DNA of 64,000 nt, taken from IMG/VR virus record IMGVR_UViG_3300035703_002708; one strand, 5' to 3'. The position numbers and the translations under genes were made by a program. Origin of the DNA: a virus (lineage: Duplodnaviria > Caudoviricetes). The notes below the pieces were generated by a model that saw nothing but the letters and a program-made list of their open reading frames with translations, was not told the origin of the DNA and ran no database searches. Shown piece by piece: positions 734-33,503 of the stretch (its first letter is position 1; each line of letters opens with the position of its first letter).

Positions 734-949
734 ATGAATGATATAAATAAACTAATAGAACAAGGTAAAGAATTGGCTCGTAAACACGAAGAAATTCGTG
801 ATGAAATTCTAAACAATCCTGATATGGCTCAGGAATTAAAAGATATTATCATTAAAAATAGAATACCCGATGATAATGTTATCGATTTATCTGGGGGTAA
901 AAGAATAAAAAGAATAGACCCTGACACATTTGAAATTGAATATGAATAA
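734..949 (+). CDS. hypothetical protein
   Basis: 71-aa ORF whose stop overlaps the thyA start. Confidence 0.65.
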   Translation: MNDINKLIEQGKELARKHEEIRDEILNNPDMAQELKDIIIKNRIPDDNVIDLSGGKRIKRIDPDTFEIEYE

Positions 950-2072
950 CATCGATAAGCAATACCAAGCACTCCTACAAGACATACTTGACAATGGAGT
1001 TGAGAAGAAAGACCGCACAGGAACTGGTACCATTTCAGTGTTTGGTAGACAAATCCGTCATAAAATGTCTGATGGGTTTCCACTACTCACAACAAAGAAA
1101 ATGGCTTGGAAAACTATGGTAACAGAATTACTGTGGTTTTTAAAAGGTGATACTAATATCAAATACCTTGTTGATAATGATTGTCATATTTGGGATGGTG
1201 ATGCGTATAAGAACTTCAAGAGTAGATTTAGTCAAATGCCTGGCATTCAATCTTCGCTTCCTACAAAAGAAGAGTTTATCGATAAAATAAAAAATCAAGA
1301 TGGATATGCTGAATTGTGGGGTGAATTAGGACCAATTTATGGTAAACAGTGGAGAAAATGGGAAGTAAATGAACCCAAAGAAATTTTAAGAACTGAAAAT
1401 GTTACTTGGCCTTATGAACCAAACCCACACACATACCAACAAAGGGTAGGTACGTTCAAGATAAAACAAATAGACCAAATCCAAAATTTAATCAACAACC
1501 TTAAAACAAACCCAGACTCAAGACGATTAATGGTTAATGCTTGGAATGTAGGTGAATTGGACCAAATGGTTCTTCCACCCTGTCATTATGGATTTCAAGT
1601 TTATACAAGAGAGTTGAGTAGAGATGAACGATTTAGATTATATGTCAAAAGAGATAACCCATTATACCCTTTAAATGTTAAAGATGTTAACGAGTATTTA
1701 ACATTGATAGGAATACCTAAACGAGCAATCTCTTTAATGTGGAATCAACGTTCAGTAGATACATTCTTAGGTTTACCATTCAATATTGCTAGTTATGGTT
1801 TGCTGCTTGAAATTATTGCTAAGGAAATAAATATGGTACCTGATGAATTGATTGGAAACTTAGGTGATGTACATCTTTATAGTAACCATGTTGAACAGGC
1901 TAAGGAACAAATTAGTAGAAAACCATTTGAGTTGCCTAAATTAAATATTTTTGAACCAGCAATCGGTAAAGAAATATCTATACTGGATAATTTACATATA
2001 TGGTCACCTAATTGTTTTATTATAGAAAACTATCAATCACACCCCACCATTAAAGCACCTTTATCCAATTAA
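942..2072 (+). CDS. thyA: thymidylate synthase
   Basis: DRTGTGT, FPLLTTKK, ELLWFL, GPIYGKQWR, catalytic LPPCHY, QRSVD, GLPFNIASY and HPTIKAPLS end; ATG 942 preferred over TTG 930; carries in-frame insertions. Confidence 0.97.
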   Translation: MNNIDKQYQALLQDILDNGVEKKDRTGTGTISVFGRQIRHKMSDGFPLLTTKKMAWKTMVTELLWFLKGDTNIKYLVDNDCHIWDGDAYKNFKSRFSQMPGIQSSLPTKEEFIDKIKNQDGYAELWGELGPIYGKQWRKWEVNEPKEILRTENVTWPYEPNPHTYQQRVGTFKIKQIDQIQNLINNLKTNPDSRRLMVNAWNVGELDQMVLPPCHYGFQVYTRELSRDERFRLYVKRDNPLYPLNVKDVNEYLTLIGIPKRAISLMWNQRSVDTFLGLPFNIASYGLLLEIIAKEINMVPDELIGNLGDVHLYSNHVEQAKEQISRKPFELPKLNIFEPAIGKEISILDNLHIWSPNCFIIENYQSHPTIKAPLSN

Positions 2073-4387: not shown

Positions 4388-4409
4388 TTTGGAATACTAA
4401 TTGATATCT

Positions 4410-5393
4410 ATGAAAAAAATTATTCTTATGAAAACTATATTCTACCTTCTGTTAGTCATTTTTATGACATCTTGCTCGTTTTATAACGTAACGGGACAAT
4501 CACCATATCAATACACATCTGTGTCAGAACAAGTAATTGTAAATGACTTTTATGATGAACCATTCGATGTTCAAAATGTTTACATAAATTACACACCAAC
4601 ATTTTCATTTGTTGATTATTACTCTTGGTATTGGTGGAGACCAAACAGAAGATTTTATTATTGGATGTATCCGACAACCAATTATTGGGGTTGGAACTCT
4701 TGGAACGGATGGAATTATTATAATAGTTGGGGATGGAATAGTTGGAATTATTATGGTTGGAATAACTATGGGTATTATCCATATTACTTAAATAATTGGT
4801 CGTATTATAATAACATATACCATCCTTACACTTATAATCCATATTTTTACCATCCAAACAATTTCGGTGTAGGTTGCCATAGTCCATTTTATAAACAAAA
4901 TACACACAATTGGAAAAAGAGTTTGAACCAACCAACTGTAAATCTTCAAAAACTTGCTCACAACAAAACAAATTATACCTCAATAAAACCTGAACCAGTA
5001 AAAACCTTTTCAGGTAATTCTCCAAAAAGACCTGATAACCTTTCTCAAAGAAGTTATGATAGACCAAAACAAGATTTGAGAGTTTATAACGAACAAAGAT
5101 ATAATACACCAAGTCGTAATACTGAAACAAGAACCTATACAAAACCTGAAAGAGTTGAGTATAAAAGGGAAACTTACGAACCAACAAGGTCAACATATCA
5201 AAGGCAAGAAAGAACTAATCAGATTAGACCAAATTACGAAAGACCAAAATCAAATTATCGACCAAGTAACCAACCTTCAAGGTCATCATATCAACCAAGA
5301 ACAAATTACGGAGGAACAAGAAGTAATTTTGGTGGGTCAAGAGGAAATTCTCCAAGTCCAAGAAGTAATTTCGGTGTAAAAGGAGGAAGATAG
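4410..5393 (+). CDS. putative lipoprotein, W/Y/N-rich core and disordered R/S/G tail
   Basis: Hydrophobic signal ending MTS-C lipobox; low-complexity WGWNSWNxY repeats. Confidence 0.7.
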   Translation: MKKIILMKTIFYLLLVIFMTSCSFYNVTGQSPYQYTSVSEQVIVNDFYDEPFDVQNVYINYTPTFSFVDYYSWYWWRPNRRFYYWMYPTTNYWGWNSWNGWNYYNSWGWNSWNYYGWNNYGYYPYYLNNWSYYNNIYHPYTYNPYFYHPNNFGVGCHSPFYKQNTHNWKKSLNQPTVNLQKLAHNKTNYTSIKPEPVKTFSGNSPKRPDNLSQRSYDRPKQDLRVYNEQRYNTPSRNTETRTYTKPERVEYKRETYEPTRSTYQRQERTNQIRPNYERPKSNYRPSNQPSRSSYQPRTNYGGTRSNFGGSRGNSPSPRSNFGVKGGR

Positions 5394-5943: not shown

Positions 5944-5972
5944 AAGTCCCTCATTTATTGAGGGATTTTTTT
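5944..5972 (+). terminator. intrinsic terminator
   Basis: TCCCTCA-TTTAT-TGAGGGA hairpin followed by T8. Confidence 0.7.
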
Positions 5973-6004
5973 TGCCCGTACATAAACAAATAAAAATAAA
6001 AAAA

Positions 6005-6814
6005 ATGGAAGACATTTTAATCTACAACGAATTAATTCAGAAACTCAGATTTTTCTTTCTGAAAAGGGGATATGTTGAGGTCCCAACACAATCAAACTTA
6101 TCAATCTTGGCGGCTTGTGAAAACCCACAGTCAATTGTCAAATATGTATTTGACGGACAAGAATGGCCTATGATTCAAACAGGTCAAATGGTATTAGAAG
6201 AAGTATTACTTAAAAATCCTGATTGGGAAGGAGTATTTTGTATCACAACATCTTATAGAGATGAGAAGGACCCAATACCTGGAAGACACAACAAAGTGTT
6301 CCCTATGTTTGAATTTGAATCAAAAGGTGGGTTTGAAGAGTTAAAGCAAGTAGAAAAAGAATTACTTGAATATCTAGGTTTCAGAACACCACTTGAAGTC
6401 ACATACGAAGATATGTGTAAAAAATATAACACAAGTATTGTTGAAGCAGAGCACGAGACAAAAATGTGGAGTAATCTCGGAACGTCAATCTCATTACAGA
6501 AGTTTCCTAAAAGAACATCACCTTTTTTCAATATGAAATCAGAAGATGGAGAAACATTTCAAAAGATTGATGTGATTCTTTTTGGTATGGAAACAATCGG
6601 AAGTGCGGTGAGAAGTTCTGACCCTGTTATGATGAGAAAAATGTTTTATGAAATCTCAGATGGTGAATATGCCGGTAAATTATTTGAGTTATTCGGCAGA
6701 GAAAGAGTTGAAAAAGAATTGGAAGAATTTTTATCTAACAAGTTCTTTGACAGGTTCGGTGCTGGTATTGGAATGACCAGATTAATGAGAGCGTACCAAT
6801 TACTAAAACAATAA
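6005..6814 (+). CDS. class IIb aminoacyl-tRNA synthetase catalytic-domain-only paralog (AsnRS/AspRS-like; AsnS2/EpmA-type architecture)
   Basis: Motif 1 FFLKRGYVEVPT, motif 2 YRDE...GRH..FPMFEFE, motif 3 GAGIGMTRL; no N-terminal OB anticodon-binding domain. Confidence 0.85.
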   Translation: MEDILIYNELIQKLRFFFLKRGYVEVPTQSNLSILAACENPQSIVKYVFDGQEWPMIQTGQMVLEEVLLKNPDWEGVFCITTSYRDEKDPIPGRHNKVFPMFEFESKGGFEELKQVEKELLEYLGFRTPLEVTYEDMCKKYNTSIVEAEHETKMWSNLGTSISLQKFPKRTSPFFNMKSEDGETFQKIDVILFGMETIGSAVRSSDPVMMRKMFYEISDGEYAGKLFELFGRERVEKELEEFLSNKFFDRFGAGIGMTRLMRAYQLLKQ

Positions 6815-7616: not shown

Positions 7617-8348
7617 TTAGAAATCTAATTTAACATCAAAGTCATAATTGTCAGAATAACCTTCTTCACCATTCATATTCATTTCTAATGACCAACTAAC
7701 TTTACCAGGTTCAGAGAAGTTAAGAATAATTTGTCCGTAACCACCCTCATTATTTTCCCAACCACCATAATGCTTTTCCAAAAGATTGTAACCAAAATCC
7801 TCAAATGTTGAGGGTAGTGTGACAGTTCCACCCAACTCGTTCTCACCATCAGCCTCAATATACCCACTATCACCGCCACCATCAAATTTCATGGTGATAA
7901 TATCTCCGTTGAGGTCATCTGAATCGTTTTTGGAGTTTATAAGCGCTTGTGCAATATCTTGTTTAGCCTCACCATCATTCTCCATATATGATGATTCATA
8001 ATAACTTACATCATGACCAAAATTTAATGTTTTGTTTTCGTAATTGAATTCACACCAAATTGAACCCCAACTTTCCTCACTTTGGTCGGCAAATGGTTGA
8101 TAAAAAGTGTCCATATTATCCTCTACAAATTCAAAAACCAAATCATATAGTGAATCATAATCTATATTTTTTGACCCACTTTCTGTTTCAATTGAACATT
8201 CAGGTCCGTGCCAGTCTTGTTCTAAACCACCACCTTGCTCAACTTGAAACCTCATATAAATTTCAGGTCGTTTAGGTTTATAAGATTTGGCAAGTAATGC
8301 TGCTCTCTTAAATAGTTTTTTGTGTTCGTCTGTTAAAATTACTTCCAT
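7617..8348 (-). CDS. DUF6878-like protein, apparently two tandem copies of the domain
   Basis: KFDGGGDSGYIE and GWENNEGGYG signature in the C-half; weaker QGGGLE...SWGSIW copy in the N-half. Confidence 0.65.
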   Translation of the reverse strand: MEVILTDEHKKLFKRAALLAKSYKPKRPEIYMRFQVEQGGGLEQDWHGPECSIETESGSKNIDYDSLYDLVFEFVEDNMDTFYQPFADQSEESWGSIWCEFNYENKTLNFGHDVSYYESSYMENDGEAKQDIAQALINSKNDSDDLNGDIITMKFDGGGDSGYIEADGENELGGTVTLPSTFEDFGYNLLEKHYGGWENNEGGYGQIILNFSEPGKVSWSLEMNMNGEEGYSDNYDFDVKLDF

Positions 8349-8372
8349 AAAAAAATTTTACTATAAATATTG

Positions 8373-8726
8373 TTAATCTTCCAAATTGATTTTCATAGTT
8401 TTCATCATCCAAATCGGTCGTTCATTTTTTTCTAAACAAACAATCCAATCCTTAGCCGATGGAATGAAGTTATTACAATCTTCTTTTACGTGCTGCTCAC
8501 CAATGTATCTGGTATATACAATTTTACCATCTGAGTTGGTAAAGTAACTACCAAATACTTTTTCACATTCAAATATTCCCTCACTATGATGACGAAACAC
8601 TCTATGGATAGAATGTCCATACCAAGCCTTAGTTTCATCAAACCATTCGTGGATTTTGATGTAGTCCTCAGGTTTTCCTCCAAATTGTTTTACAGATGAC
8701 TTAGCGTGAACTAATGGATGTGCCAT
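8373..8726 (-). CDS. DUF6915 family protein
   Basis: MAHPLVHAKSS..FGGKPEDY..IHEWFD..K....HR..RHHSEGIFE signature. Confidence 0.8.
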   Translation of the reverse strand: MAHPLVHAKSSVKQFGGKPEDYIKIHEWFDETKAWYGHSIHRVFRHHSEGIFECEKVFGSYFTNSDGKIVYTRYIGEQHVKEDCNNFIPSAKDWIVCLEKNERPIWMMKTMKINLED

Positions 8727-29890: not shown

Positions 29891-29999
29891 GGTCAGGTGG
29901 CGAAATGGTAGACGCATAGTGTTAGGTCTAATTAGACACGTTTGAAACAGAACTCCACTATTGTAGACGTACATACAGGTTCGAATCCTGTTCTGACCA
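29891..29999 (+). ncRNA. tRNA-like RNA 1 (class II frame, 34-nt expanded anticodon loop)
   Basis: Acceptor GGTCAGG/TCTGACC+A; D arm GCGAAATGGTAGACGC; stem ATAGTG/CACTAT; variable arm TGTA-GACG-TACA; T arm ACAGG-TTCGAAT-CCTGT; no encoded CCA. Confidence 0.8.
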
Positions 30000-30214: not shown

Positions 30215-30302
30215 GGTCAGATGGCGGAATTGGATAGACGCTACCCTATATTTGGGGGAGAGGTGAAAGAAACTCATACAGGTTCGAGACCTGTTCTGAC
30301 CA
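30215..30302 (+). ncRNA. tRNA-like RNA 2 (class II frame, degenerate anticodon arm)
   Basis: GGTCAGA/TCTGACC+A; GCGGAATTGGATAGACGC; CCCT-ATATTTG-GGGG; variable arm GAG..CTC; ACAGG-TTCGAGA-CCTGT. Confidence 0.75.
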
Positions 30303-33268: not shown

Positions 33269-33338
33269 TAGTCAGGACAGGATTCGAACCTGCATCTCCC
33301 GTACCAATACGAGGCGTTACCAATTACGCCACCTGACT
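33269..33338 (-). tRNA. tRNA-like RNA 3 / pseudo-tRNA (anticodon ambiguous: TTG or TGG; 6-nt loop)
   Basis: AGTCAGG/CCTGACT+A; GCGT-AATTGGTA-ACGC; CTCGT-ATTGGT-ACGGG; GCAGG-TTCGAAT-CCTGT; 70 nt. Confidence 0.7.
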
Positions 33339-33394: not shown

Positions 33395-33503
33395 CAGTCA
33401 GGACAGGATTCGAACCTGTATGATAAGTAGTAAAGTTATGGAAGTGACAATGTACTTACTTATCTATTCACTTCTAGCGTCTAACCAATTCCGCCACCTG
33501 ACT
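33395..33503 (-). ncRNA. tRNA-like RNA 4 (class II frame, extended anticodon arm)
   Basis: AGTCAGG/CCTGACT+G; GCGGAATTGGTTAGACGC; GAAGTGA/TCACTTC stem around 20 nt; ATAA/TTAT variable arm; ACAGG-TTCGAAT-CCTGT. Confidence 0.8.

Follow-up and report, generated by a model that had tools for sequence, protein, structure and literature searches.

The stretch of DNA analysed here, hereafter the window, comprises 64,000 nucleotides of a virus of the Caudoviricetes (IMG/VR record IMGVR_UViG_3300035703_002708) and carries at 6005-6814 a gene whose product is predicted from its sequence to be an active adenylate-forming enzyme with an asparagine-type pocket, built as a stand-alone catalytic core of the class IIb aminoacyl-tRNA synthetases (aaRS; Table 1). 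The open frame spans 5972-6814 on the plus strand, and its first 33 bases overlap a hairpin followed by a T-run. Because the stretch that would be initiated at TTG 5972 overlaps this terminator-like structure, we place the start at ATG 6005; the terminator upstream therefore excludes a longer open reading frame (ORF) for the core gene.

Pfam assigns residues 7-261 to PF00152 (tRNA-synt_2, the class II D/K/N core; positions 25-289 of 308, E 3e-9) with a score above the gathering threshold, and both motifs 1-3 and the antiparallel-sheet fold of a class IIb core are present; no further Pfam family, AsnA included, was matched at E up to 1. The PHROG 29758 profile, labelled "unknown function", covers residues 7-264 (positions 10-265 of 267, E 1.4e-89). 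In an AlphaFold2 model for which 60 family members were used (pLDDT 96.9), all 269 residues can be superposed on the catalytic domains of AsnRS and of archaeal and eukaryotic AspRS. The protein has no N-terminal OB-fold anticodon-binding domain, its sequence beginning at the core, and a search limited to longer proteins found no relative fused to an anticodon-binding domain. We also considered a separate anticodon-binding subunit encoded by a small upstream gene and rejected it, as the small upstream ORFs of phage P-SSM2 and of loci L197/L200 are unrelated. The preliminary description of this gene, as an intact class II motif 1-2-3 core of about 270 residues with no anticodon-binding domain, is thus borne out by motifs, fold and Pfam alike, and its general class, a stand-alone class IIb paralog, was right.

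Nearest known enzymes and the active site

By profile and fold, as far as sequence and a predicted model can tell, the nearest enzyme is AsnRS (E 4e-16; fold comparison 28.1), followed by archaeal AspRS (7e-13; 26.9), and it comes ahead of the archaeal asparagine synthetase AS-AR (1.6e-7, a partial match to 3P8T; 24.7) and of EpmA (6e-4; 23.9). Matches in NCBIfam are partial and weak: asnS, archaeal asparagine synthetase A, EpmA and lysS all score 12-27 bits, where the cut-offs are 264-468. The curated cut-offs are missed for canonical AsnRS (TIGR00457, 23.4 bits against 342.6; NF003037, 27.2 against 414), for archaeal asparagine synthetase A (NF005055/NF005052, 18.8 against 389) and for EpmA/GenX (TIGR00462, 18.7 against 286.9; NF006828, 16.4 against 264). 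An AsnS2-type asparagine synthetase or EpmA, the two functions first put forward for this gene, is therefore not what these scores point to, AsnRS being nearer. The family nevertheless differs from AsnRS (PDB 8H53, 2XTI, 1X54, 9SH8) in lacking the OB-fold domain that AsnRS has, and in invariant residues of its own (C38, M62, N176-M177 and K187). To AS-AR, also called 'AsnRS2' (PDB 3P8T, 3REU, 1NNH), the sequence relation of the window protein is weaker than to AsnRS. EpmA/GenX/PoxA (PDB 3A5Y, 3A5Z) is derived from LysRS, unlike the AsnRS-like family of the window, which has no EF-P context.

The pocket reads as AsnRS-like, and not as AspRS- or LysRS-like, when its positions are set against the AspRS and AsnRS structures. 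The family has C-E-[DN]-P for the V-E-G-G of AsnRS, Q-T-G-Q-M-W-L-E for Q-S-S-Q-L-Y-L-E, and E-T-I-G-S-A-E-R where AsnRS has E-I-V-G-G-S-M-R; its motif 2 is S-Y-R-x-E ... G-R-H ... F-E-F-E and its motif 3 is G-G-G-I-G-x-x-R. In class IIb chemistry, a Glu of the 'VEGG' type binds the alpha-amino group of the amino acid. L64 occupies what we take to be the position of the AspRS lysine, as in AsnRS (E. coli AspRS numbering), and E103 presumably that of AspRS Asp233, with Glu there as in AsnRS. L64-E65, E103, R203, E39, Q58 and E87 are 100% conserved across phage, giant-virus and fused forms, the groups compared including 55 freshwater-phage, 73 marine tRNA-linked, 25 other marine, 40 giant-virus and 5 fused sequences. 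Since these residues are invariant across all groups, one chemistry probably serves them all.

Table 1. Positions of the synthetase-like gene, its active-site segments and other features of the window
Feature	Position	Strand	Remarks
Class IIb aaRS-like stand-alone catalytic core, 269 aa	6005..6814, stop codon included	+	PHROG 29758
Terminator-like hairpin + T-run	5944..5978	+	end of upstream unit
C38-E39-N40-P41	6116..6127	+	E39 aligned to Glu of AsnRS 'VEGG'; C38, E39 and P41 100% conserved in the six groups compared
Q58-T-G-Q61-M-V-L64-E65	6176..6199	+	counterpart of AsnRS 'QSSQLYLE'
Motif 2: C79...S83-Y-R85-D-E87, loop K-D-P-I-P-G, R94-H95, F99-P-M-F-E103-F-E105	6239..6319	+
E196-T-I-G-S-A-V202-R203-S	6590..6616	+	counterpart of AsnRS 'GEIVGGSMR'
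Motif 3: R250-F-G252-A-G-I-G256-M-T-R259	6752..6781	+
tRNA mimic	29891-29999	+	Rfam tRNA and model R1 (see text)
tRNA mimic (B)	30215-30302	+	Rfam tRNA and model R1
tRNA mimic	33269-33338	-	Rfam tRNA and model R1
tRNA mimic	33395-33503	-	Rfam tRNA and model R1
Thymidylate synthase	930-2072	+	380 aa
330-aa ORF	4401-5393	+	no Pfam match
DUF6878 + DUF6915 gene pair	7617-8726	-

Family distribution and the marine partner tRNA

A word-indexed search with 90% clustering gave more than 7,000 relatives, nearly all of 265-300 residues and on contigs of up to 505 kb; an exhaustive search, grouped at 50% identity, gave 616 clusters, and in 379 of these E was at most 1e-10. Of 50,697 phage records, only those of the Prochlorococcus phages P-SSM2, P-SSM5 and P-SSM7, whose copies are 52-53% identical to the window protein and annotated "tRNA ligase", and of three huge phages carry the protein. 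'tRNA ligase' is listed as T4-like gene cluster (T4-GC) 194 of Prochlorococcus phages (PMC3037559), and the literature searched gave only this name and no account of the function of the family. Further relatives lie in metagenome-assembled genomes (MAGs) of giant viruses with a GC fraction of 0.20-0.35, flanked by capsid and poly(A) polymerase genes of nucleocytoplasmic large DNA viruses, and at 22 loci in cellular MAGs (L420-L441; contigs up to 1.5 Mb), almost all of the candidate phyla radiation (CPR; Patescibacteria).

In P-SSM2, P-SSM5 and P-SSM7, an 86-88-nt "tRNA-Asn(GTT)" lies within about 10 nt 3' of the gene, and in P-SSM2 it is the sole tRNA-like match in the genome. A clade of P-SSM7-like sequences, 80 IMG/VR loci of which 73 have enough downstream sequence, has a long tRNA-Asn(GUU) 10-22 nt after the gene in all 73 (72 found by ARAGORN and the remaining one, at 89.7 bits, by R1, our model of this tRNA family). 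In L197-L200, a clade with just 60% identity in the enzyme, the tRNA lies 47 nt downstream with CCA encoded; in further clades it stands 11-239 nt 3' of the gene, and a marine contig binned as Chloroflexota also has gene and tRNA. This tRNA family (for example L002:6779-6863 and L001:6787-6872; alignment A1) is built on a type-II body like that of tRNA-Leu, and its variable arm is long. Compensatory changes occur in 18 of the 24 pairs of its cloverleaf. U1-A72, G73 and a loop GUUU, that is, a GUU anticodon followed by U37, are invariant, and positions 32, 33 and 38 vary, so that U33 is not conserved. It is this partner, where present, that further separates the family from AsnRS, and we found no description of a long-arm tRNA-Asn in the literature searched.

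With blastn, the partner tRNA was found among the 50,697 phage records only in the enzyme-carrying P-SSM2, P-SSM5 and P-SSM7. An apparent co-occurrence in the huge phages LR756501 and LR756503 was discarded because the match is an ordinary tRNA-Leu(CAA), and therefore shows only the Leu-type body of the partner. Gene and tRNA move as one cassette, as the flanking genes of P-SSM2 and P-SSM7 differ. The probability is small that an AsnRS-like enzyme would by chance keep a tRNA with the Asn anticodon 3' of its gene without any functional tie to asparagine. The preliminary description had speculatively tied the enzyme to an unusual tRNA; this part of it gains support from the marine relatives, through their pairing with the long-arm tRNA-Asn, an RNA that differs from the mimics discussed below and is absent from the clade of the window.

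Unlike the P-SSM copies, the window gene is not followed by a tRNA, and no long-arm tRNA with GUU, U37, U1-A72 and G73 lies within about 250 nt downstream of it. Model R1 finds in the window only the four mimics, at 39-43 bits compared with 85-105 for true partners. No partner-like RNA was found near the gene in 54 related freshwater and huge-phage loci, nor at the giant-virus and CPR loci, and a complete 322-kb relative (G001, enzyme 64% identical) encodes tRNA-Glu, Arg, Leu, Met and Met, none of them Asn.

The CPR copies offer a different context. In four loci the gene is directly 3' of that for tRNA-dihydrouridine synthase (Dus), with SerRS and HolB upstream and CysRS and RF1 nearby. Canonical AsnRS is present in 4 of 20 carriers and missing from 16; in one CPR class, where the gene is sporadic (10 of the 301 genomes sampled), every carrier lacks it. 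A synthetase of free Asn therefore would not serve translation there. GatB is encoded in all 20 carriers. We considered the enzyme as the missing AsnRS of these bacteria and rejected this, because the gene occurs in only 10 of the 301 genomes and GatB in every carrier; in CPR it would therefore be an accessory gene and not the sole route to Asn-tRNA.

tRNA mimics and neighbouring genes of the window

The four tRNA mimics of the window have the common frame (A/G)GUCAGG ... ACAGGUUCGAAUCCUGUYCUGACY, a D arm of tRNA-Leu type, G1-C72 or A1-U72, and discriminator A73 in three of the four. Mimic B has a 7-nt loop, AUAUUUG, that would read as an AUU 'anticodon' followed by U37, and in this resembles the marine partner with its GUUU. 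At least 120 IMG/VR contigs contain the frame, GGTTCGANTCCTGTYCTGACT, and some of the loci L300-L379 have arrays of up to seven copies (seven in 5 kb in L312).

It had been suggested at the outset that the enzyme acylates these anticodon-less mimics, to be judged by whether the two co-occur across phages. Both are present in the window, the mimics have a constant acceptor stem and elbow, and both complete genomes of the window clade, G001 and G020, have enzyme and frame. However, among near-complete genomes (at least 90% by CheckV estimate; the frame was sought in whole records, several giant-virus records not being covered whole), the enzyme is present in none of seven frame carriers (62-271 kb), and the frame in only two of six enzyme carriers, namely G001 and G020, and not in G022, G023, P-SSM7 or G028; of 26 of the longer frame-bearing contigs, only 2 have the enzyme. 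Each element is thus common without the other. The motif-2 loop, moreover, matches that of clades whose tRNA has U1-A72 and G73, whereas the mimics differ in the first pair and mostly in the discriminator. Ordinary phage tRNA-Leu scores 50-63 bits with R1, above the mimics, and we therefore consider the similarity of mimics and partner generic and no longer use R1 as a specific detector of a family shared by the two. The tRNA-Leu-type body, A73 and the higher tRNA-Leu scores make the host LeuRS, itself anticodon-blind, a simpler and plausible candidate for charging the mimics. Acylation of the mimics by the enzyme is thus rejected by co-occurrence and appears to us very improbable, and for the window the story that joins the two should be dropped.

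Elsewhere around the gene, Pfam tallies of 150 neighbours in the window clade show no consistent partner. The sole recurring neighbour is the DUF6878/DUF6915 pair, found 2-5 kb from the enzyme in 21 of 80 freshwater loci and standing on either side of it. In six non-redundant freshwater relatives (L046, L051, L062, L064, L072, L015), one of the two ORFs closest to the enzyme gene on one side encodes a phage Hsp70/DnaK. The thymidylate synthase upstream is longer than its 266-position profile and therefore carries insertions; a 149-nt patch of its gene shares 94% identity with Flavobacterium phage vB_FspM_immuto and hints at a host of Flavobacteriia type. The 330-aa ORF has a signal- or lipoprotein-like start (…LLVIFMTSCS…), then a low-complexity region extremely rich in Asn, Tyr and Trp and an Arg/Ser/Pro-rich tail.

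Possible functions of the enzyme

The link of the family to asparagine is strong, considering its nearest homolog, its pocket, the tRNA paired with it and the high Asn content of the viruses that carry it (7.2% Asn in the window, 7.0% in G001 and 8-12.5% at giant-virus loci, compared with about 4% at CPR loci). The reading we favour, tentatively and at somewhat less than an even chance, is that of a minimal AsnRS-type enzyme, blind to the anticodon, that serves a proteome rich in Asn. Such an enzyme would use ATP to activate Asn, which it would then transfer to the 3' end of tRNA-Asn, recognised by its acceptor end alone. In marine phages, the family would travel with its own dedicated tRNA, with type-II body, long arm, GUU, U37, U1-A72 and G73; the freshwater jumbo-phage clade of the window would have lost, or never had, such a tRNA, and the window copy might act on the host tRNA-Asn, the benefit being perhaps an extra supply of Asn-tRNA for a proteome with 7% Asn. 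We infer that the enzyme uses Asn and transfers it to a tRNA, and that the function of the window copy is the one the marine copies have. The charging of tRNA, over the making of free Asn, is favoured by the exclusive linkage to an odd tRNA, by the residues that would bind the alpha-amino group and by the CPR carriers that have no AsnRS. In carrier phages, AsnB was found in 1 of 14 and another full-length class IIb enzyme likewise in 1 of 14, counts that favour neither reading.

Several observations weigh against the charging of tRNA. Most carriers have no dedicated tRNA and yet keep the active site and the motif-2 loop, which fits a small-molecule substrate; one common to bacterial and eukaryotic hosts would suit these tRNA-less carriers with their same site. 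AsnA and archaeal AS-AR, the sole stand-alone Asp/AsnRS-like cores known to have been characterised, both synthesise asparagine. Charging leaves unexplained how an enzyme with no anticodon domain would avoid other G73 tRNAs, and likewise the fusions and adjacency to pyrimidine genes (PyrD, PyrF) described below; the CPR carriers, all of which have GatB, therefore already make Asn-tRNA. Finally, the sub-lineage of the window (with P0001-P0003 and partly P0004) has altered near-invariant second-shell residues (P57I, W63V, E67V, W175F, E202V), which the rest of the family keeps at 95-100%, the change of Glu202 to Val being confined to it. These replacements could mean a shifted specificity.

The main rival, unlikely in our estimate although it deserves serious weight, is a tRNA-independent asparagine synthetase of the AS-AR/AsnA kind, which would adenylate the beta-carboxylate of Asp and let ammonia amidate it, so that an AT-rich virus with a high demand for Asn has a larger pool of it; the marine tRNA-Asn would rely on the host AsnRS for charging and form the other half of an 'Asn supply' cassette. 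AsnA and AS-AR provide the precedent, and the many carriers with no special tRNA, in hosts from two domains of life, would be accommodated with ease. Against this stand the profile and fold comparisons, in which AsnRS is nearer than AS-AR, the low score with the asparagine synthetase A models, and the invariance of E39, Q58 and E87, the residues that in true synthetases keep the alpha-amino group beside the adenylate. Unlike AS-AR and AsnA, moreover, the family occurs in viruses and CPR bacteria that often have no AsnRS to use free Asn; in 16 of the 20 CPR carriers, and in all ten of the one class, free Asn would not reach the ribosomes by that path. An asparagine synthetase also gives no reason for the long arm of the tRNA, its U37 or its exclusive occurrence with the enzyme. 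Neither tRNA charging nor asparagine synthesis explains the pyrimidine fusions of giant viruses, and these keep alive a further possibility, rather improbable as we see it, that the Asn-shaped pocket binds carbamoyl-aspartate, dihydroorotate or orotate. In chemical terms, dihydroorotate is an asparagine bridged by a carbonyl, and a ligase of pyrimidine metabolism might, for example, close the ring of carbamoyl-aspartate at the expense of ATP, replacing dihydroorotase. Fusions of the core with class-1 dihydroorotate dehydrogenase (DHODH) recur in at least eight giant-virus clusters (P0273-P0277, P0279, P0280, P0134), and fused and unfused forms have the same active site. One protein (P0164), with no relative among the viral contigs searched, joins the core to orotidine monophosphate (OMP) decarboxylase. 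The fusion set, which includes P0272, also holds one protein with a GIY-YIG domain. The immediate neighbours at 67 giant-virus loci include PyrF (OMP decarboxylase) twice, PyrD (DHODH) once and a phosphoribosyltransferase once; L244, which we group with L227 among the pyrimidine-gene associations of giant viruses, has pyrD, a UMPS-like gene and the enzyme gene in a row. In the window, thymidylate synthase is encoded 4 kb upstream. Such a ligase would leave the strict marine pairing with tRNA-Asn unexplained, however; 12 of the 20 CPR carriers have no DHODH-family gene, most giant-virus copies are neither fused nor adjoining pyr genes, and we know of no class II aaRS-like enzyme in pyrimidine chemistry.

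Transfer of the amino acid to a target other than a 3' end, by analogy with GluQRS or EpmA, we consider quite improbable. EpmA is the beta-lysine ligase of EF-P, and GluQRS (YadB), a truncated GluRS of class I, glutamylates queuosine-34 of tRNA-Asp; both are synthetase paralogs with no anticodon domain, and GluQRS, as an analogy only, illustrates that such a paralog may still act on a specific tRNA. The invariant GUUU of the partner, with positions 32, 33 and 38 varying, resembles a recognition site and not a standard anticodon loop; the CPR copies that follow Dus, and the giant-virus copies fused to a related uracil-ring flavoenzyme, would be in keeping with this. The EpmA models, however, score 16-19 bits against 264-287, the pocket is not of Lys type, no conserved partner protein adjoins the gene across clades, and base modification is without direct support.

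Returning to the charging of tRNA-Asn, one may go further and regard the two-gene marine cassette as a natural orthogonal pair, consisting of an anticodon-blind, AsnRS-derived enzyme and a type-II tRNA with GUU, U37 and G73, of which the tRNA-less copies in the window, in giant viruses and in CPR bacteria would be retargeted descendants; this wider view seems to us possible but doubtful. New chemistry has classically arisen from stand-alone synthetase cores, as AsnA, EpmA, GluQRS and HisZ illustrate. If the family does charge tRNA, it would contain the smallest known AsnRS-type enzyme, its pairing with the long-arm tRNA-Asn would be relevant to genetic-code engineering as a natural orthogonal pair, and it would bear on how viruses feed AT-rich, Asn-rich proteomes. 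If it is instead an asparagine synthetase, it would be a widespread viral auxiliary metabolic gene that is now annotated "tRNA ligase" or "Asp/Asn-tRNA synthetase".

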